DNA from: Sphagnum compactum
Lineage: Eukaryota
Direction of reading: 5' to 3'
Assembly (NCBI GenBank): GCA_965153455.1
Contig: OZ234493.1
Coordinates: 372,001 to 436,000 of the forward strand
DNA length: 64,000 nt
Position numbers and translations under genes: made by a program. Below the pieces are notes generated by a model. That model was not told where the DNA came from. It saw only the letters and a program-made list of their open reading frames with translations, and ran no database searches. Each line of letters begins with the position of its first letter. Within the stretch, counting starts at the first letter, position 1. Below, piece by piece: positions 1,599-47,530 of this stretch.

Positions 1599-1877
1599 CC
1601 ATCTGCATGAACAAGATCACACCCCAACTGCTATTTCACTGACTTGCCACATAACATTTCTGGTATCTGTGCCTTACCAAATTGCATTCAGGTTCTTACA
1701 TAACAAGTATTCCCACAATCTTATTGAAAGACAACACAAAGATGTGATCAACAGCTATTTTTCTTTGCATTAAAACCACATCACCTACCAACTGCATCAA
1801 CCCATCTGTGGGGTTAGTGCTAATAAGATCAGCCTATTGGTTGTTGACTTATACAATGGAGGATGCAGGTGACAGAG

Positions 1878-13952: not shown

Positions 13953-14314
13953 GTTTGCCAAAGTTTTTGGCAGTTTTAGGTTTATGAATTGAAACTTTTC
14001 TTCACTCTCTCCATGCCATCTTCATGTCTCATGGATGCTGCCATGTGATGTTTTGAGCTGGTCATGTTCTCTTGAAGCTTGCTTAGACTTAAAAAAAGTA
14101 GGATAGATTTAAGGAGAAATACAACACCATCTGAAGCTTGCAGAGTGGTGACTCTCTATGCAGGGCAAACTGCAGGTTGGTGTGGACAGAGAAATACAAG
14201 TTCTGTTATTGTGGAGAGGTAAAGGTGGTTCAAGCTTGAGCTTGGGATGTGGGATCGTGGGGAGAAGCTGAGGAGTTAGAAACTGGAGGGAGGTGTTTGG
14301 TGAGTTGGGGGGTG

Positions 14315-15979
14315 ATGGAGAAGCTTGATGGGAGGGGATCATGTAAGTGGCACCCAAGGAAACAAGGGGAAGGAGTGTGCGCATGGTGTCTGCGGGAGTC
14401 GCTTATCAAGCTAGTGGCCTCTCAGGGAAGAGATGAAGACACCTCCTCTCTTGATGAATATCAAGAAAAGTTTGATTCAAAGGTGATGCCAAATGGTGGC
14501 AGAAAGAAAGAAGGTGACAGTCAGCTCCCACTTGTGCAACTGTGGCGTTCAAAGTCGGTACGGGATGAGGAGTTGGCCAAGAACTCAGTGTCCGGTGTCG
14601 ATAGCAATCTCTTCCCCCTCAAAGCAAGATTGCATGGCTTGAAAGGAATGGGTGCTGTTGATTGTGAGGGAGGGAGGGACAAACAAGAATCAGCAAGAGC
14701 TTCTGATGCGCAGAACCCTTTTGATCCCTACTCTATTAGTGCAAGTAAACAGGCTAATCAGGCCCAAACTTCTCGCCCAAGAGGCAAAAACTCATGGAAA
14801 TCAGCTGTGGTTCGCATCAATGCTTTGAAGAATGCCTGGGGAACGTTCTGGAAATCAGAAAGGGGGGGAGATGATCCTACAGGTTCAAAGCTGAAGACAG
14901 GGCATGAAATAAGGGGAAAGCTTGCAGCCATGAATGATGAACCCCAATGCAGACCTGGTCAGTCTTTGGAACCATCTGCAGCTAATACTGACCCTAAAGA
15001 CTCTAAGCGACCTTCTATTGGCAGCAGGGTTAGCCCATTTAGCAGCAGAACTTCTCTCTTAAAGGTGAACAAAAAATCAGTGAGTGCTGCTAACTCAATT
15101 GAAGAAAGCAGCAACAAGGATTCAAGAGCGTTTCACAACCTTAGCACTTTAGAAGATTTTTCCCGAGAATGTATTATTGAGAGAGTTCAAGTTCACAATG
15201 TGGATACAAATGTTGTGGAGGAGAGTCCACGAAGATCTGGGTTTGAAGGAACTCAAGGTATGGGTTATGAACAAACTGTGGAAGAAAGTTGTCCAAGTCA
15301 TACTGATGTGCAATATACTGAAGTATCCTGGGTGGATGATGGAAACTACAATGATCAATCTGGCTGTGCTGTTGATGCTAAGCAATCTGTGCCACAGTCC
15401 AGTAACAAGGCCTCACCTTGGAGGATGTTTTCTCGCTCTAGCAGCAGGCAGAGTCCACAAACACAGCTGCGATCTGATGAACGAATATCAATCCCCAACA
15501 TTTTCAAGTTTCCGATGAGTCGCTCCAAGTCTGTTCGCAAGTCACAGGTGGCTTCACCTCCACCTGACTCCAAGCAAGTTCCTCGCAGCAGTAAACTTAG
15601 CCCATGGTCCAGAACTGTATCTAGATCCAGCAGCAAGTGGAGCCCTTTCTCTTCAAACTCTGAGATGAGGGGCGAGGCTGCTTTGTTTCCAGATGAGAGT
15701 CCTGGAAGGCTCAAGTCTGTTCTCCACACACAGTCGGCATCATCATCCCCATATGTATCCAAACCTGAAGCTGCAAAGCACAGTTCTCAGAGCAGTAAGA
15801 CCAGTCCATGGTCTAGCAACCTATCTCGACCCAGTAGCAAAGCAAGCCCTCTGATTCTGTCATCCAGTGCACATACCAGAGACCAGACAGACAATGAGTT
15901 GATGGGTGAGGCAGTGCGCTACAGACTGGATCCTGATGGAGAGATTAGTCAATTTTTGCAGTCAAGGTTTCAAGCATGA
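14315..15979 (+). CDS. DUF740 / OCTOPUS-like protein (554 aa) with an N-terminal Cys/His motif and a long Ser-rich disordered tail
   Basis: Single long ORF; first in-frame ATG is 14315. The N-terminus SCKWHPRKQGEGVCAWCLRESLIKL fits the CxxHP...G.CA.CL.E.L motif of the plant DUF740 family, and RSKSV motifs are present. Confidence 0.8.
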   Translation: MEKLDGRGSCKWHPRKQGEGVCAWCLRESLIKLVASQGRDEDTSSLDEYQEKFDSKVMPNGGRKKEGDSQLPLVQLWRSKSVRDEELAKNSVSGVDSNLFPLKARLHGLKGMGAVDCEGGRDKQESARASDAQNPFDPYSISASKQANQAQTSRPRGKNSWKSAVVRINALKNAWGTFWKSERGGDDPTGSKLKTGHEIRGKLAAMNDEPQCRPGQSLEPSAANTDPKDSKRPSIGSRVSPFSSRTSLLKVNKKSVSAANSIEESSNKDSRAFHNLSTLEDFSRECIIERVQVHNVDTNVVEESPRRSGFEGTQGMGYEQTVEESCPSHTDVQYTEVSWVDDGNYNDQSGCAVDAKQSVPQSSNKASPWRMFSRSSSRQSPQTQLRSDERISIPNIFKFPMSRSKSVRKSQVASPPPDSKQVPRSSKLSPWSRTVSRSSSKWSPFSSNSEMRGEAALFPDESPGRLKSVLHTQSASSSPYVSKPEAAKHSSQSSKTSPWSSNLSRPSSKASPLILSSSAHTRDQTDNELMGEAVRYRLDPDGEISQFLQSRFQA

Positions 15980-18900
15980 GCAGAATGACTCACATGTGCT
16001 TAGGAGAGCCTAAGATGAGCATCAAGCCCCACGTCTATGTTCCAGAAAGCAAGCAGGCCTACAAGTGGTGTTGAAAATGGCTTTGGTCCACCTCTATACA
16101 AGAGGAATTGGTCAACATGAGGGAGACTTGCAGCAAGGGACATGACAGGGATTTGGAAAAGCCAAGTTTTTCCTCCATAGGTTACAATAGCTATGTGTAA
16201 TATGCATGCAGGGGATCCTGGAGCAAGGTTGGTGGAGGACATGACCTGATTCTGGAGGAGACCCGTCTTTCAACAACTCCTTCAACAATTGTTGGGCCTG
16301 TTGTTGCAAGCTGAGTGACATTTCATGTCATGTACAAGTGAGATTGTTGATTACAAGGTTCCTGTAGGTAACCTGGCAACTTGGGCATTCACTATTTGTC
16401 CTTGTGGGGTATGTAATTACTGGGTTGGTTTGCAGATATAGACCTGCAATCAAGGCAGCTCTGATTCCAACACATGTCATTGTTGGAGCTGAAACAGCTG
16501 CAATGAAGAGAAGGAAGGTTCAGTATAGAACTACTGGGAAAGTACTTGGAATGGATAGTGTACATAATTGTTCGGACTTTGTAAACTTCATTTACTGAAT
16601 GGCATCAAAGTTGAATTGTCCTTGGTATCTGAATCTCTTGAATGTCCACCAGCTCCAAACCCCCTTTTGTCTTGGGTCATTGGAGGAGCCATGCTGCTTA
16701 GGAATATGTGCTGTGTGAAGGGAGTGTTTGGATCCTGCCTTCTAACTTCCCAGCCTTGTGTGCTCTGGTTTCAGGGAAGTTTGTTGTAGTTTCTTGCCGC
16801 TGGCACCAGTCAATCTTTGGAGTATAACACTCATTGAAGGAACTCAGACTTTCTTTTCAAAGGGAATTAGCCTGGGCCAGCATATGACTTCTTCTGGTGT
16901 CCCACCCATGTATTTTTTCCACAGGCAGGAATCATCAATGTTGCAGAGATGGAGCTCTGGTGGCATTGTGAAGGGATAATCAGAGTTGCCTGATATTTCA
17001 TGCTCAAAAATCAGGAGGGTGACCTATGGATGGCATTTTGTTAGTGTTAGTTTGGTTGATAATAGACAGAATGGAGAGTAGGGGGCAGCCATGTCATGAA
17101 TAGCACTCTGGGTGCATTCCTGAAATGTCCATTGATATCATTCTGTGGCCTCCTTCACTGATTGTATCTGTTCCAGGTTTTTGTCACATCAGATCATAAG
17201 TGGCATTTGTTGTAGGAGTTTCTGGTCACAATGTTGAAGCTATGCAATCAGTAATCTGTGTCTTGGACATGTCCCTGAGCATGGAGAAAGCATGCAGGAG
17301 ACTTATGTTGGAGTGTTCAACTCATGAACTCATAGAGGGTTGTTGATGTGCACTTTGATGTAAGCACTCTAGACCATGATTTATCATTGACATGCCTGTG
17401 CTTACAATCAATCCATGATAGTTGACTTAATTTCAGCAAATTCATAGCTGCATTGATGAATTTGTAATCAATGGAGCTTTGTAATGAGGGAATTTGCAGA
17501 TCAAGCTTGATATGCGCAATGTCTGATGCTTGCATACATCCATGCACAGGTGTTGAAGTTTTGCATTTCTGAGAACCACTGAGGAAGCTTTTCCTTAGCT
17601 GCAGAGTCTGGAGCAAGGTGTAATTCTCTTTTCTAGAAGGAAACAAGAAACACCCTGATGCTAGCCAAAGCCTCTTACACATGCTGCAGGTTTCTCCTTT
17701 CCAGCAAGGTGGGTTCTCCATCCGAAACCAATTGTCATCAAACACAAGTCAGATTTGCCGTTCCACTGCATTTTCAGATATCTAAACTGTTTGCCAAAAA
17801 GATTAGAAGGTGGATCACCAGGCACAAGAGTAGTTCCAAAATTAAAAGTGTGATGTAAAATTGATTCCAATCTGATGTCAAATTTCAAATCACAACAGCT
17901 TTAAACTCAACATGTCATGAACACACTTAGATAGCAAAAACAAAGTGTAGAATTTATGTATTATTGTCCTGTTTTACAAGCACAGAATGTCTTTGTTTTT
18001 GGAGTTGACTTACAAACATTGCACGAATTTTGTCACAAAATTCTATTTGCAAAATAATTTTTGTTGGATGTTAAATGAAATTCAAATCCCCAGAATTGAA
18101 TGTTTTCCCTTTTTCTTAATAATTGTCACCCATGGATCACTGTTGATGTTTCATCAATATTGTGGATATTGATGGAACACCCACAATGTTCAAAAAGGGA
18201 TGGGCAAATTTTTTTTTCCCACACCCACACCTGGGCTTCTGTCCATTACTTTTGGTGGCCAAATTTTTTTTTTAAGGAAAGGTAGAGCTGGAGTGTATTC
18301 TACATGATTAAATTAGTATCAAATAAGTCATAGAATATTGTGGCAATATCTAGTTCAAGTGCATTCCTTGCAATAAAAAACTATCTAGGATGACTTTGGT
18401 GTTGCCTAAGGGTGTTTCTGACCATGTTTTATGAAACTTTTGAGCTTTGTTATGTGTCATATGCCTCATCCTAATCATACTTGTCACCCTGTGAGCACCC
18501 AACTTCTACAATAAATGGTTTCAACGTTTTGCATCACTTCGCATCCCACAACTAAAAACATCACTTCATATCCAAAGTTTGTTCTGGTTTCAATGATTCT
18601 GCCACCTCACATCTCACAACTAGACATCACTTGTTATCTCTATAAGTGCAGCTCCATCAGCAACATTAGAATGTCATGTAAACTCTAATTTGGATGAAGT
18701 TTAGGCTTTAAATTGCAGAGTTTGGACTTGTAAACATACACATGATATAGTGCTCTCCAAAAGGGCCAAGAAAGAAATATGATCGGACTTTGATTGGCTA
18801 GTCACAAAGGTTGGACCGTGTGGCATTGATCTTCATTGTATGAACATTGTAAGCTTTTAAAGTATTTCACGTTTATGTGTGGAAATAACTTGCACATCAC

Positions 18901-19739
18901 TTTGAATGTGGTAAACACTGGCAAATGTCCATATACCAAGTGTGAGTGGAGATGCTCTTAAGAGCATCCCCACTGGTGCTCAGTATGTGACCCTGAACAT
19001 CAAAGTCGGATGAAGAAAAGTCTACATATGTTGGTTTGGCTCAGGAAAATGGTTTTTTTCTCCAACATATTTGTTCGGGTTGCTGAGGCTGGTAAAAAGC
19101 GCAGCAAAGCTGTGCACCTGCTAGAGAAGAGTGTAATAAATATGACCTGCGCTCCCTGTTTCTGATTGGCCAATCATAATGATTTGTCCAGGTGGTTTGC
19201 TATTAGTAATTCCCACCTATTTGCAGATAGACCCTGTTTCAATCTTATGGATGGGGTTCAGTGTTTTTTTTTCATTTTTGCAAAGTAGCCAGTGTGGCCA
19301 CCTCTAATGTACAGTTGGTGCTCCTCTGGCTAAAAGCAAGGTGGTGCAAGAGTTCTCTATGGCCCCACTAGCATATTACTTATATAAACCTGGCTGCCAC
19401 TTCAATTTTTATGGTGAATTATTTGACCCTTTCACACAATTGTTGGGTGAAAAAAAGCTGGCTAGATCTAAAATGAACATAGAGTTTTTTGGCTATCAAA
19501 CAATTGTATTTGGAGCTTATATGGTGAAGTGTGAGATATTGTTGTCAGAATTTGGCAACCACTTGTAGAATTCTAATTGTAGAATTTTCAAGGATGTTGA
19601 TTAATGTAAGAAGAGAAACAATTGCAATTGGAGTCCAGAGAGTTGGTAGACTTGTAAAACAACCACTAAATTCAGCAAACAGAATAGCACATTGAGAAGG
19701 GCCAAAAAAATTATGCCTTTACAAAAACATAGCCTGCAA

Positions 19740-20350
19740 TTCAACAAACCACAAAAGATTTTGCAGTTGTAGAAATGCTACTAGCAACTCCACAAAACAA
19801 CTACACCCTAAACCTCAAAGAAGTAGCGTTGTTGTGTTGCTCTCCACTCCAATACATTAGCATACGGGAAATTCTCCAAAGTGTAAAATTGCTAGAATTG
19901 TTGTGCAAACATGCGCACAACAATTGGGAGATGAGTAGTAAGCTTGTTGTGAAGCTTTGACTTCATAAAAGCTAGAGTTGAGAAGCATTTCTCATCCTCC
20001 ACACTGCCTATTATGTGTACCATTGCCAATTTAACAAATTTGACATACTTAGGGAAGCTAGAGACCAATATCCGAGATGTTGTCACAAGGTGCCACATTC
20101 TGGTTAACGGATTAATGTCAAAAGAGGGCACCATACAAGTTGTTGCATTTGACCTCATTGTGAGCTTGAACATGCCTTGTTGACAGTCAAGATCAATAAC
20201 ATTCAAGAACTTTTGCACTTGAACCTCTTGTTCATCCACGTTGTGCATTATTTTGCCATAGCAGAAAGTTGCTTTAAAAACTTGAAGGTGATTAAATTCA
20301 CAAGGCAAGGTTTGGATTCACAATCCTATCTTTCAAAAGCAAAATTCTTT
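19740..20350 (-). pseudogene. hAT transposase C-terminal (dimerisation domain) remnant
   Basis: NPLTRMWHLV...FPKYVKFVKLAMVHIIGSVEDEKCFSTLAFMKSKLHNKL matches the hAT S..E R.FS...K...RNRL signature in degenerate form. Confidence 0.8.
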
Positions 20351-21224
20351 CAACATGTCAAAGCTTCCAAATTGTGGGAGAAATAGTCTGAAATCTTTCA
20401 CCAACATTTTGAGAGCATATGGGTTAGACCAGCAAAGGTAAAGTAACATAAGAGTTGTAGAGAGTTCTAGATTAGAAACAAAAGTTTTAGCATATCAACC
20501 AAAACAAGGAGGGCATCTTAGAGTAATCAAAGAGGAACTACAAGAACTAGAGGTGGATCAGCAAAATTTGAATAGTAGAGTAGCCATTGAAGATCTACAA
20601 CAACTTGAACATCAAGGATTAAATCCTAGTGCTATCAAAGAAGAGATAGAAAATTAGGATTTAAACGTGGATGTAGAGGGACAACTAAGAAAGTTTGCAA
20701 TAGATCAGCTTTACAACCAAAAGTTCAAGAAGTTTCTATGTTACCGCTAGGTGCAAAGTTTTATAATTCGTAAATATAATCTAGGTAGTCACAAGAGAGG
20801 CAGATTTTATCTAGCTCCAAGAAATCGTAGTTTGTTGTTCACACCTACTGCCTATATCAAAACAACAGACCAAGATTTAATTTGGGATGATTTTGAATAG
20901 TTTTATGCATTGATAACTTCTTCCTAACAACTAGAGACATATGCATTTTAGACACACCCTGACTTGTCATACTTCCTTGAAAGTTGGGCAAAATACAAAA
21001 GATTCAAGTTTGTACTTCTTGTAGGGCCAAATAACACACCCCCAATGTGTTGGAGGTTGGGACCAAGGGGATCTAGATCATGATGATCAATGTACCTCAT
21101 AAGAGGTGAAGTGGACTATAGGAGGAATTAAGCCAAGACAAGGAAAATGTCCCACCATCTTGTAGACATGAACTAGCAAGAAAACAAAGGAGAGTTAATA
21201 GATGTGATCCTTTAATCACTAGAG

Positions 21225-23110
21225 GCAAATGGACCAATGAAGCATTGGAGGAGGCCATGGATGCAATTGAAAATGGGACAACTTCATTAAGGAAGGCAAG
21301 TAAGCACTAAAACATACATTTTATTTCATTGTCTGATCATTTATATGGGAAAACAAGATCTAGGAAACTTGAACCAACAGGTGTGCTAACAATAGAAGAA
21401 AATCAAGTTGTGGTTGCTTAAGTTTTTTCCATGTAGGAAGTTGGGCTATCAATTAGCCTACAATAATTAAAAATGAAAGTGGTAGAACTGATTCAAACAA
21501 GGCCAACACCTTTTCGAGGAAAGGTACTAAGGAGTTCTTAATGGTATTGGTTCAAGAAGAGACATCCTAAGCTCAACATTCGTTAAACTAAAGGAGTGGA
21601 AATTAACTAAGCACAAAGGTTGACAATTCAATCTTGCCAAAGCTTTTACCAAAACTTATAGTCCCATTACAACAAACACAACTATGTTGCAAACCATATT
21701 TGAAATTCTAATGAAACATGCATCTAAGCAAAAAGATAATCAAAAGCAAAGGTTCTTGCAAAATGAGGTTCACACTAGGTGTACAACATTATCCCAAAAT
21801 CCAAGGAGTGGTTGATTGTTAATTGTGTGGTCAATGTAATAGGAACAACACTGCCAGGGTTCTACATATTTAGAGGAGAGAGGATATGTGACGATTACAT
21901 ACAATTCTGCAAATTAGGGACTTGTATGGCTATGCAATCAAAGGCATGGATGACTACCTTCCTTTTCAAAAAGTTTTTGTCTTTTTTCAAAAGGTGTATA
22001 CCAAGTGGAATATCCATAACAAATAGACATATGTTCATCTTGGCTGGGCATGCATCCCATGTCACCCTTGAGGCAATTGAACAAGCTCAAGAGTTTGGGT
22101 TGGATATGATTATATGATTACTCTACCTTCACATACATTTCATGCAATTCAGCCCTTATATGTGGTTTGCTTCAAGCCTTTCAAGATTGCTTTCAAAAAG
22201 GAAAGAGACATAACAATGGTTAGGAAGAATTACACAGAACTATATAAGATAACATTGGCAGGGTGGGTAGACACAGCATTAGACCTAGCACTTACAAGTC
22301 AAATTATCATGTCAAGGTTCAAAGGTACAGGGATCTGGCCATTTAACCCTAAGGCTATGGATTCAAAAATTGGCTTTGTACACATTGTAAAATCAAGCCA
22401 GGGAAGAAAAAGAATCAAAGCAGGAGGATGGTGAAGAAGACTGGATAGAACATATAGTTGTAGAAGAACTCAGCAACATAGGCTCAACAATAAAAGTTCC
22501 AAATATTGCTAGTCTATCTAAAGATCAACCTAGGTATTATGTGAACATGCCTATAATTCCTACAATCACTAACCATGCATCTATAATAAAGTCAGAGAAC
22601 ATGGTTGAAAATTTGGCACAACCTTCATTGGATGAAACTGCAAAGCTTAGAAATTCTAAAAGTTCAACTCAAGTGGCATTAGCATAGGGGTGTCATGGTT
22701 TGCTGTCATTGCCACATTTGCCTGTAAGAAGGACCAATGGAAGAGAACCATTCATCGATTATTGTCAAAGCCATGTTGTAACCTTAGAAGAGTATTTGAA
22801 GATTATGCGACAAAAGGCAATGGATAAGGAGGCAACAAAGTGAATCCGAGAAAGCAAAAGGAAAAAAAGACACAATAAACAAGCAAGAAAAACACTTACA
22901 TTGTTGATTGCAGCTGAAAAACTAGTTGAAAGAGAACTTATAAAACAACAATGAGCTAATTTCATTACAGCTTGGTCATCTTTAACAGTTAGAGAGGCAA
23001 GAGATAAATTTCATTCCAATTTCAAGGCAAGTTTGCGAGCTCACCCTCTTGGATACAAGAATGTGAATCTTGGTGAAATAACGCAGGTGCAAAAACAAGC
23101 TTAGTAATGA
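21225..23110 (+). pseudogene. Decayed pogo/Tigger-like (CENP-B HTH + DDE_1) transposase
   Basis: KWTNEALEEAMDAIENGTTSLRKAS (psq-type HTH), WFKKRHP.L, SKAWMTTFLF, MFILAGHASH, LPSHTFHAIQPLYV.CFKPFK and FKGTGIWPFNP. Numerous stops. Confidence 0.88.
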
Positions 23111-23184
23111 GCCTTGGCTCGGATTCAAGCCAAAAGGGAAGTTGTAGCATCCCTACAACAACCACAAATGGACAACTAAGTTAT

Positions 23185-23430
23185 TAGGGTGGAATAGCTA
23201 ATGGGTGGAACAACTGTAAGTGAGGATGAATAAGATATCAAGAAGAGTAGCTAATGCTAGGGTGGAATAACTAAGAGAAGGAACAACAACTGTTAAGGTG
23301 GACAAACTAAAACGAGGATCAACTTTTGTTGGGTTGGAATAACTAAAAGAAAGAGCAGGTGTAATTGAGGATGAACAAGAAGTCAGGAGTAGTTGCTATT
23401 AAGGTAGAACAACTAGGAGGAACAATAACT
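23185..23430. repeat. Degenerate short tandem repeat (GGTGGAA(T/C)AACT core)
   Basis: The core recurs about six times with variable spacers. Confidence 0.55.
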
Positions 23431-24439
23431 ACTGTTGATGATGAACAATGTTTTTTGGTGATGTTAAGATTGAAGGATCTCCAATGATTCGATAATTGCT
23501 GATGTGATGCAAATTTACATGCAATTTTCCATATGGAAATGATTGTCTTACAAATCTATCACTGTAGACTAGATCAACAATTGTACATTTTTTGGTGATG
23601 TCAAAATTGAAGGATCTCCAATCTTGTAACTCCAAAATGTCAAATGAATTTACATGCATTTTCTTACATTGAAGTAATCAAAGTAACACCGCTAACAACC
23701 ACAATAATTTGATTCAATAGTAAATAAACTTATTAATACATTTGTGGAAATCACTCTAATCACTTACTTGAAAACTAGACCATCAGCATTATGTATAATC
23801 CAAATCATCACAACAATCCCCATTACAAAAATGTATTTTCTCCATTACATCTATGCTCATCTTCAACCCAAATGTAAGTACACTACAACAGAGAGTAGAC
23901 ATTTTTAGCTAGTGAAGATGAACTTTGAGTTGAAGAGTAACACTTTAGTTGAGATCAAGGAAGGGCAAATTGAAGTTCAACTACCACTAGTTTGGAAGAT
24001 GCAAAAGAACCTACTTCAAGCGGTGCACCAAGCTGCAACAAATGAAATGGGAAAAACTAGACTTGCAACAAATAACAACCAAGATCATCCACTATTGAAC
24101 TATTTATCAGAAAGCACACCATCAAAATTGAAAAACAGTTTCATGTTGCTTGATCCACGATTACAAATGCAAAAGTTTTGACAAAAATGTTTACTGTTGC
24201 AATGTGTTTTGATTTTGTTCCACCTCATTGATCTTTTAATTGGCAAAGGGACATGAGAATAAAAAAACCAAACAACCAAGTTGTGCACTCCCTTTGCTGC
24301 AGAAAAACTTGAGCAAGAAGTTCGAACCAAGGAGGTTCAAGCTCCTTTCAATCTTTCAAACTTGGCCTTGCCTACTTGCATGAGATTTGTGCACATGTTA
24401 GAGCTTCACGCTTATGTCCCTGCAACATAAAAAGGTGAA

Positions 24440-24920
24440 TGAGAATTGAGTCGAGAGGAGCTTGACCTGTGCATGGAGAAGAGACAAACAGGGGAGCGAG
24501 AGTCTTCCGTGCACGGAAAGAAACGGATAGGGGAGTGAGAGTTGGGTCAAGGGGAACCTAACCCATGCACGGAGAAAAGACGGACATGGGAGCGAAAGTC
24601 GGGTCGAAGGGAACCCGACCCGTGCACGTAGAGAAAACAAACATGGGAGCGAGAGTTGGGTCGGAGGGAACTTGACCCTTGCATGGAGAAAATACAGACA
24701 ACGCAGTAAGAATCGGGTTGGAAGGAGCCCAACTCATGCGCAAAGAAGAGATAGAAAGGGGAGCAAGCGTCGAATCAAGGGAACTTGACCCGTGTAGAAA
24801 GGAGATCGAGTGGGAGTTGAGGCGTGGGGGTCACGCACAGAGAGGAGACGAACGGGAGGAAAGCTCAAAAAAGGGACGAGCAATGTAATCGTGGGAATCT
24901 GACCCATGTGTGGAACGGAG
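24440..24920. repeat. Degenerate ~60-bp minisatellite, probably TE subterminal
   Basis: Unit like GGGAGCGAGAGTTGGGTCGAAGGGAACCCGACCCGTGCACGGAGAAAA recurs about 6-7 times. Confidence 0.8.
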
Positions 24921-26298
24921 ATGGAAGGGGGAGGGGGGTAGGGGGTTTTTGGGTCAGCACTACATGGGAGAGTGGCGGCTAATTTAGGGTTTAATAAACC
25001 TTTAGGTTTTGATAACCAAACATTGTTTTGCCTTTTTTTAGGGTTTTAATCTCAACCCTTGAATAAAGGTGTTTAGTTTTTTCAACGAACATGATTAGTT
25101 TGAGCATGAAATTGTTTGGTGACATGGTGGACTTGTGCAAAGGTGTTTGTTGATAGGATTTCCATTGCTTGAACATAGATAGAAAAAATGTTTAGTGACT
25201 TTTTTTTTTTGGGACAATGAGACTTAGAACTTCGAGAGGCCATATCTTTTGCATCTCTGGTCCAAATCAAACGATCTAAAGCGTAATAGGTGCGCCCAGA
25301 GCTCCTTTATAACTCAACTTTGGACCCCCGTGGCAATCGAGGTCTGCCTAGATCACAAAGTTCCTCTGTGTTTTTAAGTGTACTATGACCGGCCAGTTTA
25401 CCCTAGCATTAGTGGAGGTGTTGAGGAATAAGGACAGACAAGATGAAACTCAGTTTACCACCAAAATTGATCGTTTTCTGAGTTTCATACCCCGTTGAAT
25501 GCTAATGTACTCTTTTGCAGGTTTTTCTTAAATCTCACCTTGTGTATGACCAAACTCAGGGTTCTGGTGCTGTGTTTTTCTTACTTTATGGATAACTCTA
25601 ATGTCCCTTTGAAACAAAATCGAACTTTGAACCTTTCACCCAACTCGCTATGCTTGTTGCGGGAAAGAACTGTTGGGTTAGATCCGTGAAAAATTGGTTA
25701 CTCAAGAATCAGCCCAGGAGGTGACATGTTTTTTGCCTTTGGTTCAATCGTCGTTGGAAACGACGCATAAGCCTGCAACGACCCGTGTGCTCCAGGCGAG
25801 GACTGCTCAACCACCGCTGGGAACGGCTCTTGCGACAATGCACATACACCCGATCCATCTAGCTTGGGTGAGAGGCTGGGCGAAGAGCCAAGTACTTTGG
25901 TGCAATGCGCACAACGTATGGGTGGGAGTTCAGATGGCTCAGCTGGTTGCGCTACAACTAGTGCAATCGGTTGGTGCTAGATCTACGATAGGAGGCCCGA
26001 TCAACCAGGAAGCTGGGGCCCCACCCCCTCCAGGTTTTCCCCACACAATATTGAGTATAAAAAGGGTGAAGGACAATATGCGGCTAGCTTACATTGAAAA
26101 TCTCTTTACCAATCGCGAGATCAGGACCAGCGTGCAGACAAGATACTTGCGCTTCAAGGGTATGTTGTACAAGAGCGAAAGCTACTTGTGTGACATCAGC
26201 TATGTTCAGCTACGAAAAGCTCTGGCCCGGTTTTGATGTGGTAACACGCAGCTTGAGGTAGTGCTCGGTGCGTGGAAGGGCGTGCCATACGTAGAGAG

Positions 26299-29200
26299 CA
26301 GGGTTCTACAGATCCGGGAATCCCGTACGGGATGCAAAAATGCCGAATTTCCCCGGACTGGCGCGCAGCGCCAGGAACGGGGTGCCCGGACAAATGAGCG
26401 AGGGCCGAAGGCCCGAGCTCCGGGATAAGCTCCGGGATAAGCTTGCTGCATTTTCCCGCCCAGTCCGGGTACCCCGGACGATTTTGAGGCACCTTCTTTG
26501 CTGTATTCGGGAAGTGCAACATGAGCTCTGAGGTTCCAGCTCCTACAGACTTGATTGCTTCCCCAGTCAAACCCCCCAGCCCCTCCAGCACCAATGCCCC
26601 CATTGAGGCTGTTGAGCTAGTTGAGCCCCTAGAACCCCCAACCAAAGTAGCACGTACAGCCTGGTGGAAGTCTAAACCCTTAGCAGATTAGCCCAAGCAG
26701 CATGCAGCACCAGTTCTGACTACAGCTGTTGCAAGCTCTCGCAACACATCTGCCACTGCCATTGCTCCTACAGCAGCTGCATCAGCTTCAGCACCAGCCT
26801 CAGGCTTAGCCCCTGCGTCAGCCCCTGCGTCCGTTCCTGCTTCAATTTCAAGAGCTGCTGTCAGTCGCAGGCCAGCATCTAATGCTGCTGCCAGTCTAAA
26901 TGGGGAGGCCAGCACCTCAGCTGCAGCAGCTTCTGCAGGCGCCAGCAACTTGCCTGTTGCTGATAGCCCTGCTGAGCCCAAGAGGCAGGGCAGGCCCCCA
27001 GTGACTGCTAAGCAGCTCAACAAGTTCCCCATTGATTATTCATGGTGGCAGTTCAAGAAGCAGCTCGAGAACGGCAGTGTGACTGGCTGCTGCACCCTCT
27101 GTCTCAAGTATCAGCTCGACAAATGTCAATTCAGCAGGTCGTGCGGGGCCGTTGTGTGGGATGGCAACGATCTTCTCACTCACACCACCTCTCTCACGCA
27201 CAAAGCAGCAGTCACAGCCAAGGCCAACCCTCTCAAGCGGGCGTTTGACGTCGTTCGCACCACAGGCATCGTTGCAGCCAAGACAGCTACACAGTGCCTG
27301 ATGGCCACAGCTCTAACATGCATCAAGGAGCAGCTTCCAATCAGCAAGTTTGCACCACTGCTGGCATTGGAGAAGTTTCTGGGCGTGGATCAGATCGCGC
27401 ACAAGTACAACCATAGCAGGTATGTTCATGATGTAGTGCTTGCACAGGGCATCCGAGGTTGGCAGGTATCCCTTGCTTTGAAAACTCATCTTTGCGACCG
27501 CGTAATGCATGCTGTAAAGATCATGAATAATAAAGCAGTTGTCCTGCCTGAGCATTGCACTTGCAGTCGTCAGCAATCAGTGCATTGTTGCCAACACATG
27601 CCCATCTCCTGTCCACTTCAGTCCGTGTATGATGTCCTCTCCCTTGACCTATCTACTATCTGCAGGTAGTTTTGGTCAGCGCTCTTCAGCTGTAGCGAGG
27701 TGCTGTTACAGAAGCAGGTCGAGCGGATCAAGGCCAGCTCCAGCTTTGCACTGTTCATTGACAGTAGCACAGACGTGTCCACGGAGGATCACCTGCTCAT
27801 CTACGTCAGATACCTGCATCCCGACACGCTTGTCGCTACAACTGAGTACCTGACCTGCGTGAAGCTGTTGGCCACTACAGCTGATGCCATCACAACCGTT
27901 CTGTTAGGGGTCACGACAGCATTGGGGTTGGACGTGCAGCGCATGGCAGGGTTCTGCAGCGATGGGGCAGCAACAATGGCGGGCGTGAAGTCGGGAGTAG
28001 CTGCACGGCTGAAGGCAGTCAACCCGCGCATTGTTGCGGTACGCTGTGTAGCGCACCGCACCGCGCTCGTCATGAGCGACACTGCAAAGAGCAGCCCGGA
28101 GCTACAGGCAGTGGACTCCGAGCTGTGACAGGTGCACAATCTCTTCAACCATAGCAACAAGCGACAGTCAGAGTGGGAGGCTTTTGCAAAGGGTTACGGC
28201 ATCACCCAGCTCAGATTCCCCATCTTCAACGCCACACGCTGGTTCAGCCGGCTGCAGTGTGTGGTGGTGCTGACCAACAACCTGGCGGAGCTCATCATTT
28301 TCTTGGGATGTGCCACCCGCAAGCGCAACTCCAAACAGCCTTGGCCGGCTGGGGCGGCAGCACTTGAGGAGCTGCGCGACGTGCAAGCAGCAGTGAAACT
28401 GAACTTGCTGCGAGACATCATGCTGCCGCTTGATGTCTTGAGCAAGAAGTTTCAGCACCCGTCATACCTGCTGCAGCACCATGTGCGCAAGGCGACACAG
28501 CAGGTGGCGGTGGAGCTGCAGACCAACTTCATTGAGGCGGAGCTGTTGTCAGGGCAGCACTATGACAACTTCAAGGTAAGCAAACGGCACATGAGGGTTC
28601 GTGTGGTGTCATGAAACTTGATGCAAGCAGTCATTGTGCAACTTGTCAATTACCCAACATAGTTTGACTTCTTGACCATACCTGTGACTTGCGCATGTTT
28701 TGCTGTGTTGCAGTACATATGACACCAAATCCTGTCGTCTCTAATGCTATGCATGCACCTGTTTCTGCTGTGTATTGCAGAACGCCAAGGCTTGCCCTGT
28801 ACTAATTCTGCTTGCCTATTTCTTGTGTGCTACAGGTGAACCTGGGCAAAGTTAGCAGTGCCATCCATTACTGCGATGGAGATGGCAAGTTCACTGAGAA
28901 GGTGGTGCTGACGGGGGAGCTGAACGAGCAAGATCTGGCCGACTTTGCGGCCTCAATGGTGCAGTCAATTGTGTCGGGGCTGGAGGATCGCTTTCCTGAG
29001 GGGGATCTGTTGGACAGCAGTGCGATCTTTGATGTTGCATCGTACAGGGGCAAGTCAGCAAAGGAGATTGCAGAGTATGGCGAGGATGAGTTCATGATGA
29101 TCCTCAAGCATTTCAGCCAGCCTGCGGATAAGCATAGGTGGTTTAATACCGAGTCTGTGGGCTGTGAGCAATGTTTCATTGCGCTTCAGCATGAGTTCAA

Positions 29201-30235
29201 GAAGATGAAGCGATGGTTGGCAGATTATGCAGTTGCGCCAGGGCTGAGCAATCAGGATGTGTGGGCCTGCATAAAGAAGGAGCATCGTTTGGAGCTGCCT
29301 CACATGTTGCCCTTTGCGGAGGCCATGTTCTCTGTGCCGGTTGAAACGGCGTGTGTTGAGCGTGGTTTCAGTGAGCACCGAGTGATCAAGCATCGGCTCA
29401 CCAATCGGCTACGTGTGGTCACGGTCGATTCAATGATGCGTGTGAGCATTCTGGTTGGCAGTGTCGAGTCCTTTGATTATGCTGCAGCCAAGGAGTTTCA
29501 CAGCAGGCCTGTTGGCGAGCTTCTGGTCAGCAAGTTGTTCGCAGCAATGAGCAAGGAGCTCGCCAATCAGGTGCCTAGCTTTGATGATGGGCTGGAAGAT
29601 GATGGGTTTGATGAGGAGGGCAGTGTGTGCTCATCATCGGATGAGTCTAAGTGCTGGGGAGATGCTGAGATGGTAGGTGTGCAGAGGAAGGAGCTGGATT
29701 TTTTGGCCAAGGAGGTAGAGAAGCCAGTGGAGCAGTTGTCAAATGTGTCTCAGTTGCTGAAAAATTTGCATGCCAAGTAGGTGTCTTGGTGATGCACAGC
29801 ACCTTGTGACATTGACCATTGGACATTGACTTTGAGTGTGATGAAAGCTGGGCTGTGACTGACCATCCTTGGTATGCACACATGCATTTCCAGATGTCTT
29901 CAAGCAGTGTGCTGTTGAATAAATGACTTCTTGATGCAATGCAGCTTTGTGTTCTGGATGTGGTGAGTGTGATCTGGCAATGTCAAGCTGACAGTACTGC
30001 AACAATGAAGGCTTAGATCCCCATTCTGTATGAATCATTGTGCTCCACGCGTCATAGCAGAGTGCGATGCACACAAATTTTTTTTTGCATGCACCCGGAC
30101 AAGATTTGGCCCGTTTCCGGGGGACCCGGACAGAAAAGCCCCAAGAAGGCCCACTTTGTCCGGAGGGACTCCGGAACCCTTTCTTGACAAGCTTCGGAAA
30201 TCCCTGAACCAAATCTCAGAACCTGAAGAACCCTG
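26299..30235 (+). mobile_element. Full-length hAT DNA transposon, 3937 bp
   Basis: Perfect 8-bp TSD GTAGAGAG at 26291-26298 and 30236-30243; TIRs CAGGGTTCT...AGAACCCTG, imperfect further in; CCGGG/CCGGA-rich subterminal regions; internal transposase. Confidence 0.96.
26521..29780 (+). pseudogene. ZNF862-like hAT transposase, 3 exons (26521-27419, 27666-28575, 28836-29780), 917 codons before the terminal stop, with three in-frame stops
   Basis: Introns are AG|GTATGT...CTGCAG and AAG|GTAAGC...CTACAG, and both keep the frame. Motifs: TTF-type zinc finger (CTLC...HTTSLTH), FALFIDSSTD, FCSDGA, CVAH, TRW and CVERGFS. Stops at 26689 (TAG), 27667 (TAG) and 28126 (TGA). Confidence 0.92.
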
Positions 30236-31004
30236 GTAGAGAGGCTTCGTCGAGGTTGCGATTTGGGGAAGGTTGAGGTTGAAGAGCACTTGCTTCTTGT
30301 TTGTCCAAATACACAGAAAGTTAGGGAACGCTTTTGTTCGACCTTGCCCTTCACCCACACTAGCACTTTTGCTGAGCTCATGCAGACTACGAACATGGTC
30401 GCCCTGGCCAAGTTTGTGGCATGCTGCCAGTACCATAAGACAATCTGTCCTCCATGATCTACCTTTCGTCTAATGGACTCTCTGGTCCCAAACATACGTA
30501 AAATTGTAAACAGTAAACACTCTGCAACTTCTAATTTGAAAAGGAAAGAGCCTTCCACTTTTCTAAGGCGGTAAGGAACATTTTTTTCCAGCTATTCCTT
30601 AGTTTTGGCCCCCAAGCTTAGGCTATCACCCTGGAGAGCTTGGCCCTCAAACACACCAAGAGCTCCACCTTGTTTTCCCAGCATTTCTTTATATTTTAAA
30701 CATTTCTGTATGTTTAACATCATCATCATGACATGTAGTGCAACCTATTAGAGAAAAGAGAGGAGAGCTTTTAAAGCTACATGAAAATGAATGAGTGGAA
30801 AGGATTGACAGTGGTGGGGAGGACATACATAAATTGACTAAAGAAATTGAAAATAAAAAGATAAAAGGAAAAAGAAAGCCTCTCCCTTCCATGTCTTTCA
30901 GTGCCCAGCACTTCAGGTACCACCTTCATGTTTAGGCACCTCAAAACATGGAAGGGCCTCTAAGGCTACTCTTCTCATATGCTTTCCAATTTACAACCTT
31001 TTTT

Positions 31005-31300
31005 TAACTGGCGAAATTTGGCCAAAAAAGAAAAAATGATTTTGGAGGTTTTCAGTCACCCAAAGTTAGGGGGGAAAAAAATCACCAGATTTCTATAGTT
31101 GGCTTTCAGTCTGTAGCCAAAAATATAGAAGGATGATTAAAGATTTGTACTTCATATCTGGTTTATAGCCAAATTTGGCTAAATCTGACTGGGGATGATC
31201 ACCACTTTTTTACTTCTTCCTATCAGTCTTTGTCTTGCTGACTATATCTAGCCAAAAAGAGAAATTAAAAATTAAAATGCTAAAATCATCTGTTTAGGGT
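31005..31300. repeat. Dispersed repeat family member (AGCCAAATTTGGCT / GATGATCACCAC core); related copies at ~48110-48360, 54515-54685, 61420-61690 and a fragment at 35030-35095
   Basis: The core (GTGGATCATCC..AGGTGGAAT.AGCCAAATTT.GC) recurs in either orientation at these sites. Confidence 0.65.
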
Positions 31301-33013: not shown

Positions 33014-34522
<1,509 letters not shown>

Positions 34523-41986: not shown

Positions 41987-44900
41987 AAGCTATAGCCAAT
42001 TTTCTTGGAAACAATATATACAAATCAAACAACTTTTCTATTAATTTGATACATACTTGATAATATTGCACTAGTGCAAGAGACCAAAGATTGGGCTAAG
42101 CATTACAATCAATTGTTGGTCTTCTTACAACTGGATTTTGCCAAAGCCTATGATAAGGTGAGTTGGGCATTTTTCTTCATAACTTTAAAGAAGATGGGCA
42201 TGGCCAAAGAGTTCATTGGGATGGTGGATTTGTTATTCAAGAATACAATTATAGCAATAATATACCTTAATGGTGGCATAGCTAAGACTTTGAGAATTGG
42301 AAGAAGGATAAGACCAGGATGCCCATTGACTCCCTATCTTTTCATTTTTGTGGGAGAAGTTCTCAATTTCATGGTTAAGGAAGTAGAAAGGTTAGGTGGC
42401 ATTAGAAGCATTTTTCTTTGAAGAGGAACAAAACATCAAGCTTCATCACAATAATATGCTGATGACACAACAATATCAGTCAAAGGGGATGAAAGAAACT
42501 TTCTGAATGTGGTCAATTTGCTAGATCTTTTTCTCTTGATCTTGAAATCAACTGGGAAAAGTTTGTGGCTTATTAGAGTTGCAAAGAGAGGAAGGAAAAA
42601 CCTAGCTGGATGAGAAACTTTAGGTGGAAATGGGCAAGGGAAGGAAACCTATCTAAGTTGCTAGGCATCATATTTAGCCTAAAGTTGGATGTCAAAGAAG
42701 TCAGTGAGTTTCTAGTTAAGAAAATTCAAAAGAAATTGAAATATTGGAGTTCACTACATTTGCATTTGGATAGAAGAGTACTGATTGTTAATGCAATATT
42801 GGTGCTACACTTTGGTTTTCTACTACTGTTTGGGGGGGTGGGGTGTGGGGCTTAAAAAAAGGCAGTTAAAAGGTCATGTCAATGTTTGCACAATTTCCAA
42901 TCGATTTGAGGCGAACACCATACTAGGGCAAGAATCAATTAACATGATTGTTGTGCTCAAAAAAGTATTAGAGGACTAGCTCTGATTGGCTTGAAGAGGC
43001 ATTCACAACCTTGCTTTGTAAATGGGTTTTAGTACCGTTGGAGCCAGGAGATCCAAACTTGAAAGCTTTACTAAGATTCAAGATCACCCATTGTATGCCA
43101 TCTGAACACAAATTATGTTGGCCTAACCTAAGTTGGGCCTTTATCATTTTAACACCAAGGTCCAAAGTCTGGGGACAAATAGTGAGAGCATTGAAATTTA
43201 TGGTGGATAAAATCCTGTTCCAACCCTCTCTTACAGTAGTTGAAATTTTGTGTCTTGTAACATTTCCATGAAGAAGATCAATGTTTGGTGGGGCTCCACT
43301 TTAGAGGTAGCAAGTTTGGACTCTCAATCTTGAGAGCTTCCACATTGCACTGGGAAGGACTATGCACAGATGGGGATCTGTGGACCCACAAGATCAGAGC
43401 TTCCAGGAGTCCGGAAAGGTCAGAGATAGGTTCAAGTTTCTTGAGAATGAGAAATGCATTTGGGAGTGGGTTATTGAAACTATTCCTAGTGTTTGGATGT
43501 AAGAGCTTATAGATCCTACCAAGGAGTTAAGGATTGGAGAATGGATCTGCATCTGTGAGAACCCGACTAAAGCCCCAACATGATATTTTGCACAACTAGT
43601 AGTTCTGCCAATGGTGGCTACAGCTCAACAGAGAACTGTGGTACTCCCCACTGAAATATAGGCATATGTGGTTGGTGCTCAATCACAACTTCTTCAACCC
43701 ATGAACAACTGCAAGGAGTTTTTAAGACCCTCAGGAGAGTAAGGTTATGTTCCAGATTAAGGTCAAGAGGCATGGAGTTCAGGTTGTTTTACGATGCACT
43801 AAAGGACTTGGATTTGCTTTGGAAGTGGAATGGAAGGGAAGAGTTAACAAGGGATGGTGTAAAAGATGGAAGGAAAATGTTGAAGCCAAGAAGGAGACTC
43901 ATGCACAATGTGCTTGAGATGTGGGCAAATGACATCCTATAATGATAGGATAGAAAGGTGCTTGAACAGGACCCGAAAATTGGTTATGAGGTTAAAGCCC
44001 ATGGGTGAGGGTGTGACCAGAATAAAGGGCCCGCATGAGCATGACCCAGTTCTAGAAATGCCCTCCCCAAGGGCATTTGCATGTATAAAGGTCGGCTGCA
44101 TTAATTGTTTTGGGCCTGTAAGATGTTTAGGGGTTAATGCTGTCTGGATCAGGACTTTCCACTATGTAAAGCACAAAGTAGAATATGGAGGTGCCTTAGT
44201 TTGCCTTATGTAAATTGGTGCCTTTGTAGGTGTGAGGCACCTTCGAAATGTGTAAGGTACCTTATTACACATAGTAGCCACCCCCATCTGGGCCTCACCT
44301 TGCACATGGTAGGTTATGCCATTTGGGATGCCTGCTTGTGCATTACCAAAATAATGAAGAGTGCCTTATGGTTTCTTATAAGCTTAAGGTGCAATGAGGA
44401 TGGTTATCTTTCAACTAATTATGGATTTGAATAAGAAAAATTTAAATGCAGGGTGGAAGGAGTTAAAAAATTTGGACTAGACATGAAGGCTTTGAATGCA
44501 AAGCAAACCAGGTTTGCCCAGGGATGGTTCAATGAAAGAGGTGTTAAAAGCTCTTTGGGAATTGTTCATTTAGATTTGAGACTTCTAACTAAGTACTAAG
44601 GACAATCCATCAAAACCATTTATTTTAGCTCCAAGGATTGAAACCTTAGTTAGATCCAATGAAGGGCATCATTTGTTGGTTGAGTGAAAAGGAAATAAAC
44701 TAGGCAACAAAGCAACACCAACATGGATGGAAGGCAAAAAGGTTTTGCAGGTTTAGCAATAATTTATGGACAACACAATGATGAAGATTCAGAAAGTTCG
44801 GCAAAGACAAACAATTTGAGCTTATGAATGGTTGTTAATTTGATAGGAGCATTGTTCTTCTGTCCAATGATGACTTATGGTTGTGAAGAAGCCTTGAATT

Positions 44901-46165: not shown

Positions 46166-47530
46166 TCAGAAAAGTTTGCCAGCAGTCTTTTCCTCCGATG
46201 AAAACAATGGCGTTTGGTCACGCCGACCCAATTGGAGTGCAATCTTTTGGTGGTATAACTCTCCGTCCTCTCTCTGGCAAACCGGTATCCTCATCGTGCT
46301 TTGGATATCTTGCTCCATCTCTGCATAGTAACCTGCACAGTTCCTGTACAGCTCAAATATCATTCCAATTTGCCCACCGTTGGAAAAGCTACTCACCAAC
46401 ACCGCTACTATACTGCAGGCTGCCGCCACTCCTGCCAAGTGAATCCCTGGCCAGCATCCCAGCAAGCTCAACACAGCCGCAACCACTGCAAATACTGGAG
46501 CCGATATTGCTAGCCTTTTGTTAGGAGTCTCCTTGTTTCTGGCCGCCCGCACGTATTTGGCGATGTCCGATGTGTGGAGCTTATCTGCTGTTCGCTGGAG
46601 GTCCCTCGTGATGGCATCGGTCCAGCCATTCGTGTTGTTGGCTGGGATTTCCGTCTCGGTGAGGTCAGCAACAGGGCCAAGTACCGAGGGTGCCACAACT
46701 TTGGGAAACTTCTCGAGGCCGTTGGGCTTCAAGGGGAGAGGAAACCCGACGTCAAGGGCCTGGAGTCTGCCCATCACCTCTTCCATGTACAGGTGCGCAT
46801 CCTTGCGTAGGCGTGGATCCATCAACAAAGTGGTGTCGATGTCCCTAGCCAGCAGCTTGTGGAAGCGAGACGCCGTGCGTTGCTCTTCAGCTAGCTGCGA
46901 CGGCTGATACTTGCTGGCCAAGAACATAAATCCGGCGGCACCGCCGTTGAGAAGGAAGGCTGCCACGGACATGCTGAAGGAGGTAGTTCCGACCCCGGTG
47001 TTCATGGCGGCCAGCATGGCCGCTGCGATGGTGGTGATGTTGACAGTCATGTGGCAGAGCTTGTTCCAGTTATCTCGTTGGACACCGATGATGGCATGCA
47101 TCTCGCTACGATCTTCGGCCGCTAAGGCGATGTTGCGCAACTGAGCCACCAGCATAAAGTCCTCGACTCCATTTCTATCAGTCCAGCCTTTGGTATTGCG
47201 CTGCGATGGAGATGTGGGGGAGCCGGGGCCTGCTGGATTGAATGAAGTCCAGTCTCGGTCAACGGAGTCAAAGGTAGTGTGTCTGGGTGTTGCGAGTGCA
47301 CAAGAAGGCCTTAGCGACCTGTAATTACACCTGCTACGCTTTGATCCATGTCCAGACTTCCGAGAGATCCGAATTGGCACTTGTATGAAACCCTGGGAAC
47401 TAGTGTTATGGGTAGAAGTAGGAGTAACAGAATGGCTAGAGCTGTAAGCATCACCGACTGCAAATTGGTTTCCAGAAATGAATTGAGAGCCTAAATTAGT
47501 GGCAGTAGAGAGGGCATTGCAGGCAGCCAT
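46166..47530 (-). CDS. At4g22030-like / petal-formation-expressed (Chloroplast_duf) family protein, copy 1, 454 aa
   Basis: Intronless ORF, first ATG 47530. Family motifs AEDRSEMHAIIGVQRDNWN, QPSQLAEEQR, FPLPL..LEKFP, NGW and GGQIGMIFELYRNCAG. Ser/Arg-rich transit-peptide-like N-terminus. No F-box motif seen. Confidence 0.9.
   Translation of the reverse strand: MAACNALSTATNLGSQFISGNQFAVGDAYSSSHSVTPTSTHNTSSQGFIQVPIRISRKSGHGSKRSRCNYRSLRPSCALATPRHTTFDSVDRDWTSFNPAGPGSPTSPSQRNTKGWTDRNGVEDFMLVAQLRNIALAAEDRSEMHAIIGVQRDNWNKLCHMTVNITTIAAAMLAAMNTGVGTTSFSMSVAAFLLNGGAAGFMFLASKYQPSQLAEEQRTASRFHKLLARDIDTTLLMDPRLRKDAHLYMEEVMGRLQALDVGFPLPLKPNGLEKFPKVVAPSVLGPVADLTETEIPANNTNGWTDAITRDLQRTADKLHTSDIAKYVRAARNKETPNKRLAISAPVFAVVAAVLSLLGCWPGIHLAGVAAACSIVAVLVSSFSNGGQIGMIFELYRNCAGYYAEMEQDIQSTMRIPVCQREDGELYHQKIALQLGRRDQTPLFSSEEKTAGKLF

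Follow-up and report, generated by a model that had tools for sequence, protein, structure and literature searches.

Background

The hAT transposon Hermes of the housefly combines an 8-bp target-site duplication (TSD), short terminal inverted repeats (TIRs) beginning CAGGG and short subterminal repeats with a transposase that has a DDE core, a conserved tryptophan and a C-terminal dimerisation region. The TIR of maize Ac also begins CAGGG, and hAT targets usually follow the pattern nTnnnnAn. In green algae of the Chlamydomonadales, the proteins Volvox Vretimale_19929 (P0017) and Haematococcus QJQ45_007011 with its paralogues (P0159-P0162) carry the precomputed domains PF14291 (DUF4371) and PF27073. 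Here we describe a 3937-bp hAT element at positions 26299-30235 of a 64,000-nucleotide stretch of Sphagnum compactum DNA (assembly GCA_965153455.1, contig OZ234493.1, positions 372,001 to 436,000 of the forward strand; "the window" below is this whole stretch), which shares all the features listed for Hermes and encodes a protein colinear with the algal ones over ~690 residues.

A first-pass annotation had read this element, from the letters alone, as a complete and compositionally foreign hAT transposon that recently arrived from a GC-rich eukaryote, possibly a green alga. We find that the window copy is structurally whole yet mutationally dead. We lean towards regarding it as an ordinary young resident transposon, the decayed copy of a low-copy Sphagnum hAT family that went through a burst and was then silenced. 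Recent transfer from an alga is unsupported by the data presented here.

Element ends and target site

The element is bounded by TIRs of 13 nt, 12 of 13 positions being complementary, which were recovered by a search for inverted-repeat pairs and lie directly inside a perfect 8-bp TSD, as the first-pass annotation had stated (Table 1). The first 16 bases are identical in all seven metagenome copies that reach the left end. The target GTAGAGAG fits the hAT pattern and is found once only in contigs of uninterrupted copies of the flanking repeat, which fits a duplication made on insertion.

Of 13 YCCGGR sites in the element, 12 are subterminal, forming one cluster at each end, and one is interior. 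Across the whole window there are 53 strand matches to this motif against 55.6 expected, that is, no enrichment, so the clustering is specific to the ends of the element. To judge from this arrangement, the clustered motifs are putative binding sites of the transposase.

The transposase gene

After splicing, the three exons give 918 codons, or 917 residues, and end at a TAG at 29778-29780. The two ~250-bp introns of the first-pass annotation hold up at 246 and 260 nt, both GT..AG and colinear with relatives: the joint across intron 1 reads KYNHSR-Y-FW, and the consensus of 16 relatives is KYNHxRYFW. The Ala/Pro-rich N-terminal extension reported there is likewise present, as ~125-190 residues rich in Ala, Ser and Pro without counterpart in relatives. 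The best full-length alignment pairs residues 127-809 with residues 18-689 of P0017 from Volvox reticuliferus (37.0% identity over 694 residues, E 1.5e-133).

The description of the element as complete stands for its structure (TIRs, TSD and three exons) and falls for its coding capacity, since three in-frame stops had been missed: TAG at 26689-26691 in exon 1, and TAG at 27667-27669 and TGA at 28126-28128 in exon 2. At the position of the first stop, all eight other rows covering the site have CAG or CAA, and contigs of four runs have C. At the second, all 12 other rows have TAC, and contigs of three DNA runs agree at 27669. At the third, 11 of 12 other rows have CGA, the locus L006 alone sharing the TGA, at a CpG.

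Contigs of the RNA run X15 are ~95% identical to the element, and six moss or plant metatranscriptomes hold 0.15-0.19 of its sampled words. Among the joints listed for RNA contigs, which leave 149 further joints aside, none is a spliced joint.

Assignment to the hAT superfamily

The element belongs to the hAT superfamily of DNA transposons. Pfam gives a DUF4371 match in exon 2 (E 0.0035), a Dimer_Tnp_hAT (PF05699) match in exon 3 (14.6 bits, E 0.029) and, over a C..C...H.....H region of exon 1 whose consensus relatives share, a zf-C17orf113 match (E 0.012); the transposase has no Pfam match to a BED zinc finger. The PF05699 cut-off of 21.4 bits is passed by the relative P0013 (22.0 bits), and P0159 scores below it (18.8 bits). 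A profile built from 16 relatives matches the Hermes transposase in the PDB at E 1.1e-4.

The AlphaFold model of P0017 (mean predicted local distance difference test score 75.3, predicted template-modelling (TM) score 0.67) has Hermes as all of its top 11 matches among solved structures (E 6.9e-10 to 6.4e-8, target TM 0.49-0.62), the next match being at E 0.015. The Hermes-like fold is thus established on a clade member 37% identical to the window protein and not on the window protein itself. The near-invariant columns D233, D300, W393 and E658 (P0017 numbering) and the C..H motif are all kept in the window copy, and by their conservation the three acidic columns and W393 are predicted catalytic residues. 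All 16 nearly invariant columns of a 34-row alignment are kept in the window copy, and one near-invariant H is replaced by R across the whole moss family. A search of the ESM Atlas with exon 3 returned generic hAT-dimerisation clusters only, without taxonomic value.

A young family decaying at CG and CHG cytosines

A metagenome scan recovered 15 further loci, with 88-94% protein identity and 92.5-95.5% nucleotide identity to the window copy. Their insertion sites differ, and their flanks have a GC content of 0.24-0.46, apart from two short GC-rich stubs. Locus L001 has the TSD ACATAGAG on both sides, and L007 has GCAACCAG/GCGACCAG, matching at seven of eight positions. Pairs from different loci are ~92-96% identical, and in the four cases where two samples share a locus the copies are 99.9, 99.9, 99.0 and 97.9% identical. 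Annotated fragments with 81-92% amino-acid identity (BLASTP) are found in Sphagnum magellanicum and S. troendelagicum, and 14 DNA runs from seven studies, under three organism labels, contain 0.48-0.60 of the element's sampled words. The copy pattern is star-like, as left by a burst and independent decay afterwards.

Two observations concern single loci. L004 and L005 share one insertion site in two samples and are 2.1% apart; orthology between two moss taxa or haplotypes is the probable explanation, in which case the insertion predates their split. L013 has its right flank in common with L002 together with a different left flank and a 170-nt deletion, and may be a recombinant or a chimeric contig. 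When the window minus the element was compared with the metagenome flanks (blastn), no shared repeat appeared at E<=1e-20, the one match being of 76 nt at E 8e-4, so that repeats provide no link between the host of the metagenome copies and that of the window.

Decay was scored over 12 distinct copies, namely the window copy and 11 others, against their majority state. The window copy differs at 62 of 3918 sites (1.58%) and the other copies at 2.58-4.22%. Differences from that state number 1180 over all copies, and C>T or G>A changes make up 1015 of them. The C>T rate per site-copy is 8.07% in CG context (243/3012 site-copies), 9.1-11.0% in CHG and 1.90% in CHH (215/11314), and transitions at A/T sites amount to 0.37% (62/16763). 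All 12 copies carry in-frame stops, one to seven each, mostly private with a few recurring in two or three copies, and the majority state has none. This spectrum is consistent with silencing by CG/CHG methylation followed by deamination, a process that would have shaped the decay.

In three of the 12 copies the ratio of C>T to G>A is also asymmetric between strands. The window copy has 36:12 (p 7e-4) and L011 has 62:32 (p 0.003); L013 has 30:70 (p 8e-5). The direction in L013 is opposite to that in the other two, and the changes are unclustered along each copy, with runs as expected. A possible cause of the asymmetry is the way in which replication or transcription runs through each site of insertion.

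Insertion setting and timing

The element sits inside a high-copy interspersed repeat with an A-rich 3' end, whose two parts continue on either side of it (Table 1). In run X1 the contig of the single-copy flank agrees with the window at 676 of 677 bases and has a depth of ~30. In organisms B and C (runs X8 and X14) a single contig per run passes straight from 25636 to 30518, sharing three letters, so that the block 25637-30517 is absent at this locus there; X1 has no such contig. Their flanks diverge from the window by ~5% (9/169 and 20/359). These joining contigs give the order of events as insertion of the repeat, insertion of the hAT element and then 1.58% decay, all after the split from organisms B and C or at a polymorphic site. 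The youth of the copy and the absence of the repeat from this locus in B and C speak for the recent arrival proposed in the first-pass annotation. For scale, parts of the Sphagnum genome paper place the split of two Sphagnum subgenera at ~16 Ma and describe introgression within the genus (PMC9946827).

We considered transfer between Sphagnum species, given near-identical element contigs in organisms A, B and C beside flank divergence of ~5%, and rejected it because high-depth Logan contigs of a multi-copy family show a majority-like state, the differences being private C>T changes of the window copy.

The flanking repeat looks like a 5'-truncated retroelement. It has no Pfam match even at E 10, and the label long interspersed nuclear element, for which a C-terminal motif, an A-rich end and the high copy number had spoken, was dropped. 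A further very abundant short repeat family flanks the locus at 25300-25693 and 31013-31200, where Logan contigs have a depth of 14000-26000 and joints and loose ends are numerous. The two stretches have no inverted or direct repeat of >=30 nt in common.

Composition compared with the host

The GC-rich island of the first-pass annotation is real against the window at large: the GC content is 0.536 in the element and 0.546 in the majority state, as against 0.396 in the window and 0.367 in its non-genic background. It is much reduced against the adjoining repeat (GC 0.47-0.52), and the sharp switch claimed at the junctions is not there, the immediate flanks being this repeat on both sides (Table 1). 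The preference for codons ending in G or C was correctly seen, with GC contents at third codon positions (GC3) of 0.54, 0.74 and 0.63 in exons 1, 2 and 3; six host open reading frames (ORFs) in the window, representing four independent genes, have 0.42, 0.42, 0.57, 0.58, 0.58 and 0.59. The same preference is common to the host polyubiquitin gene: relative synonymous codon usage (RSCU) in the hAT gene and in polyubiquitin is 2.51 and 2.64 for CTG, 1.87 and 1.73 for GTG, 1.68 and 1.91 for AAG, and 1.89 and 1.42 for GAG.

CpG is not abundant, contrary to the earlier description. Host values of its observed/expected ratio span 0.29-0.69, and both the element (0.53) and the majority state (0.55) fall among them; the 222-nt 5' subterminal part alone approaches 1 (0.99). 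The element's introns have a GC content of 0.45-0.48 and a T content of 0.30-0.33, the background T content being 0.31. The GC content of the element lies somewhat above that of the small set of host genes compared, yet its style is not foreign. Young coding transposons, host genes and the resident repeat all have GC 0.47-0.55 in this AT-rich moss genome, so that composition alone cannot flag transfer.

Relatives and phylogeny

A phmmer search with exon 3 among 1.84 billion representatives gave 366 matches at E<=1e-3, 85 at E<=1e-10 and 10 at E<=1e-30. The closest are nine short fragments, 86-95% identical, after which come full-length proteins of at most 40% identity. A separate homologue search with exon 3, aimed at longer proteins, gave no match. 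Three of 30 looked-up proteins bear organism names (Sphagnum magellanicum, S. troendelagicum and Chlamydomonas sp. UWO 241), and profile searches add five named proteins, one from Volvox reticuliferus and four from Haematococcus lacustris, among at least 7 and at least 10 proteins returned. The only named non-moss relatives are thus these three chlorophycean algae. None has similarity far above host-gene level, the best of them being 37% identical in protein sequence.

The first-pass annotation had proposed a transposase phylogeny as a check on an algal origin, and two trees contain no supported nesting among algae. In the LG+G4 tree (58 rows) the moss protein stands on its own branch of 0.76 within an unresolved group of 31 rows that includes Volvox and Haematococcus clades (SH-like approximate likelihood ratio support 85). 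In the site-heterogeneous tree (posterior mean site frequency model, 35 rows) the moss branch is 1.07 long and groups weakly (84) with P0037, P0011 and P0033 on a polytomous backbone. Neither tree has a supported sister of the moss branch. Chlamydomonas UWO 241 belongs to a set that stands far off as an outgroup. The gene model of P0047 is chimeric and takes in an exostosin domain.

Two further leads were set aside. The GARP/FYMINK ratio is uninformative as a proxy for donor GC, relatives ranging from 0.26 to 2.7. A giant virus as vector is without support, a search of viral contigs with profile A1 having returned no relative. The literature searched on Sphagnum transposons, supplementary repeat tables lying outside the search, does not describe the family, and no alga-Sphagnum transposon transfer was found in it. 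In the part of the text of the Sphagnum genome paper that was covered, "horizontal" is absent and "transposon" occurs once, hAT not being among the terms looked for (PMC9946827).

Origin of the element

The history we favour, that of an ordinary resident family, would run as follows. A 917-residue Hermes-like DDE transposase with an N-terminal zinc finger and low-complexity extension would have bound the CAGGG... TIRs and the YCCGGR clusters, cut the element out and joined it to a new site by class II cut-and-paste transposition, duplicating 8 bp of target. The family would have amplified in a burst, over millions of years or less, and the window copy would have inserted into a high-copy repeat already resident there, once the host lineage had parted from two related organisms. 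Silencing of the copies by the host would have followed, with deamination removing their CG/CHG cytosines 20-30 times faster than transitions arose at A/T sites, a loss that may have given every sampled copy its own stop codons. On this history, the GC-rich look of the element against its surroundings would be chiefly a matter of young, coding DNA lying in a genome that is AT-rich.

Several results weigh against a resident origin or against parts of the model on which it is built. The majority-state GC3 of 0.649 exceeds that of every host ORF in the window, and RSCU of the element correlates with that of pooled host genes at r 0.39 only. No second relic of the family was found elsewhere in the window by tblastn with the spliced protein and 10 relatives, and no copy more than ~4% from the majority state was found, which lends no support to long residence in the lineage. 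No land-plant relative outside Sphagnum was identified among the 30 looked-up proteins (three of them named) and the five named profile matches. All Pfam matches of the window copy lie under curated cut-offs. As to splicing, a single contig from the RNA libraries extends past the end of exon 2, and it reads into intron 2.

Some of these results also bear on a rival history in which the element reached the Sphagnum lineage by horizontal transfer not long before the burst, with a green alga or some other peat-moss microbe as donor, and was then amplified and silenced. We regard this history as doubtful though worth serious weight. It would accommodate the single young burst without older relics, the small detectable clade, the Chlamydomonadales as its sole named members outside Sphagnum and a GC3 above that of the sampled host genes (at most 0.59), and there is a precedent in the mariner-like DNA transposons of Physcomitrium patens, for which excerpts of PMC7466625 suggest transfer from fungi. 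The missing older relics, the small clade and the slightly raised GC3 each fit a reactivated low-copy resident lineage as well. Against transfer, no full-length protein is more than 40% identical on exon 3, the trees support no sister of the moss branch and give it only weak neighbours under the site-heterogeneous model, the majority state is already CpG-depleted like host genes, the codon preference is that of polyubiquitin, the spread of GARP/FYMINK among relatives means that not all can come from GC-rich donors, and the search of viral contigs gave no relative. The first-pass proposal of a recent arrival from a GC-rich eukaryote keeps its premise that the copy is young and loses most of its compositional case. 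The star-like burst of the family, in several Sphagnum records and 15 metagenome loci, also speaks against it; a chlorophyte donor agrees with the naming of the non-moss relatives and sits poorly with their low identity. A dated form of the idea, in which a rare hAT clade entered Sphagnum from an algal or moss-associated microbe around the Miocene radiation of the genus, burst and was then killed by CG/CHG deamination, seems to us rather unlikely; if true, it would be a datable alga-to-bryophyte invasion with its full life cycle preserved.

Long vertical inheritance of a rare hAT clade since the chlorophyte-streptophyte ancestor, with loss or missing annotation in most land plants and reactivation in Sphagnum, is decidedly unlikely in our judgement, although the deep star-like branches of ~1 substitution per site between all lineages and the exclusively Viridiplantae membership of the named proteins agree with it. 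According to parts of the genome paper, the Sphagnum annotation removed gene models with transposable-element domains (PMC9946827), and because of such filtering, absence from named plant proteins is weak evidence. The lack of any named land-plant member beyond Sphagnum and of old relics nevertheless speaks against vertical descent. An artefact, either contaminating algal DNA wrongly assembled into the moss contig or a domesticated gene of the host, could be suggested by the element's GC above its surroundings, but it is barely credible and was rejected on the junction and copy data: the perfect TSD is embedded in a host repeat whose sequence resumes beyond each end, the same element occurs at other sites in AT-rich flanks and in 14 DNA runs from seven studies, and it is multi-copy, with TIRs and private stops. 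An ordinary resident family that burst and was silenced stays the reading towards which we lean.

Other features of the window

Of the AT-rich, heavily decayed resident relics in the first-pass annotation, a pogo-like DDE_1 transposase and an RVT_1 reverse transcriptase were confirmed, and a hAT relic was not found with the family protein or 10 relatives (Table 1). The three PF14476 paralogues encode 474-489 residues and are spaced ~6.4-6.9 kb apart. The open frame between the pentatricopeptide repeat (PPR) gene and the pogo-like relic is probably a plant-specific host gene; its nearest ESM Atlas clusters by features are streptophyte proteins, some of them with DUF740 (score 0.92, a lead only).

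Table 1. Positions of the hAT element, its surroundings and other annotated features in the window
Feature	Position	Strand	Remarks
TSD, left copy, 8 bp	26291-26298	.	GTAGAGAG; identical to right copy
Left TIR	26299-26311	+	CAGGGTTCTACAG
5' subterminal YCCGGR cluster	26313-26478	.	7 motifs (motif count); putative binding sites
Exon 1	26521-27419	+	start ATG, Ala/Ser/Pro-rich extension, zinc-finger-like region 27043-27225
Intron 1, 246 nt, GT..AG	27420-27665	+	splicing restores conserved motif
Exon 2	27666-28575	+	catalytic core: both D residues, C..H motif, TRWFSR
Intron 2, 260 nt, GT..AG	28576-28835	+	relatives align colinearly over junction
Exon 3	28836-29780	+	end of insertion domain, predicted catalytic E in VERGFS, hAT dimerisation region, acidic tail
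3' subterminal YCCGGR cluster	30094-30175	.	5 motifs (motif count); putative binding sites
Right TIR	30223-30235	-	kept in metagenome copies
TSD, right copy, 8 bp	30236-30243	.	GTAGAGAG; perfect match to left copy
High-copy interspersed repeat holding the hAT element, left part	25637-26298	+	Logan contig depth 4300-5900, GC 0.517
Same repeat, right part with A-rich 3' end	30236-30517	+	depth 8400-9600, GC 0.468; boundary 30517/30518
PPR protein	3-1616	-	
Open frame, 579 residues	14240-15979	+	GC3 0.42, no Pfam match; ESM Atlas has residue 26 onward
Pogo-like DDE_1 transposase relic	21779-22117	+	E 6.7e-6, GC 0.36-0.37
Polyubiquitin	33014-34522	-	six ubiquitin repeats
RVT_1 reverse transcriptase relic	42050-42421	+	E 6.1e-7, GC 0.36-0.37
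PF14476 ("Petal formation-expressed", Chloroplast_duf) tandem paralogue	46166-47635	-	E ~1e-82
PF14476 tandem paralogue	52570-53994	-	E ~1e-82
PF14476 tandem paralogue	59469-60938	-	E ~1e-82

Comparison with known systems

The 12 copies offer a natural measure of the loss of presumably methylated cytosines in peat moss, with CG about equal to CHG and both at 20-30 times the A/T sites. The clade to which they belong is small and poorly annotated, with named members only in Sphagnum and the Chlamydomonadales, and it is a potential test of transposon exchange between algae and bryophytes.

In architecture the element is closest to Hermes, the clade model matching only Hermes at E<1e-7. In sequence it is only marginally similar to Hermes, with a profile match at E 1.1e-4 and 13-16% identity when the P0017 model is aligned structurally, and its finger-like region has a weak zf-C17orf113 match and no BED match. 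It also has the 125-190-residue Ala/Ser/Pro extension and two introns. Towards the Volvox and Haematococcus proteins, compared as proteins alone, colinearity goes together with an identity of only 36-37% and no supported sister relation, and the algal proteins are without the N-terminal extension. PpTc1 and PpTc2 of Physcomitrium patens are likewise moss DNA transposons with their nearest relatives outside land plants; as excerpts of PMC7466625 have it, they belong to the Tc1/mariner superfamily and are placed phylogenetically with fungal elements, whereas the tree of the Sphagnum hAT is unresolved and its identity to relatives is low.

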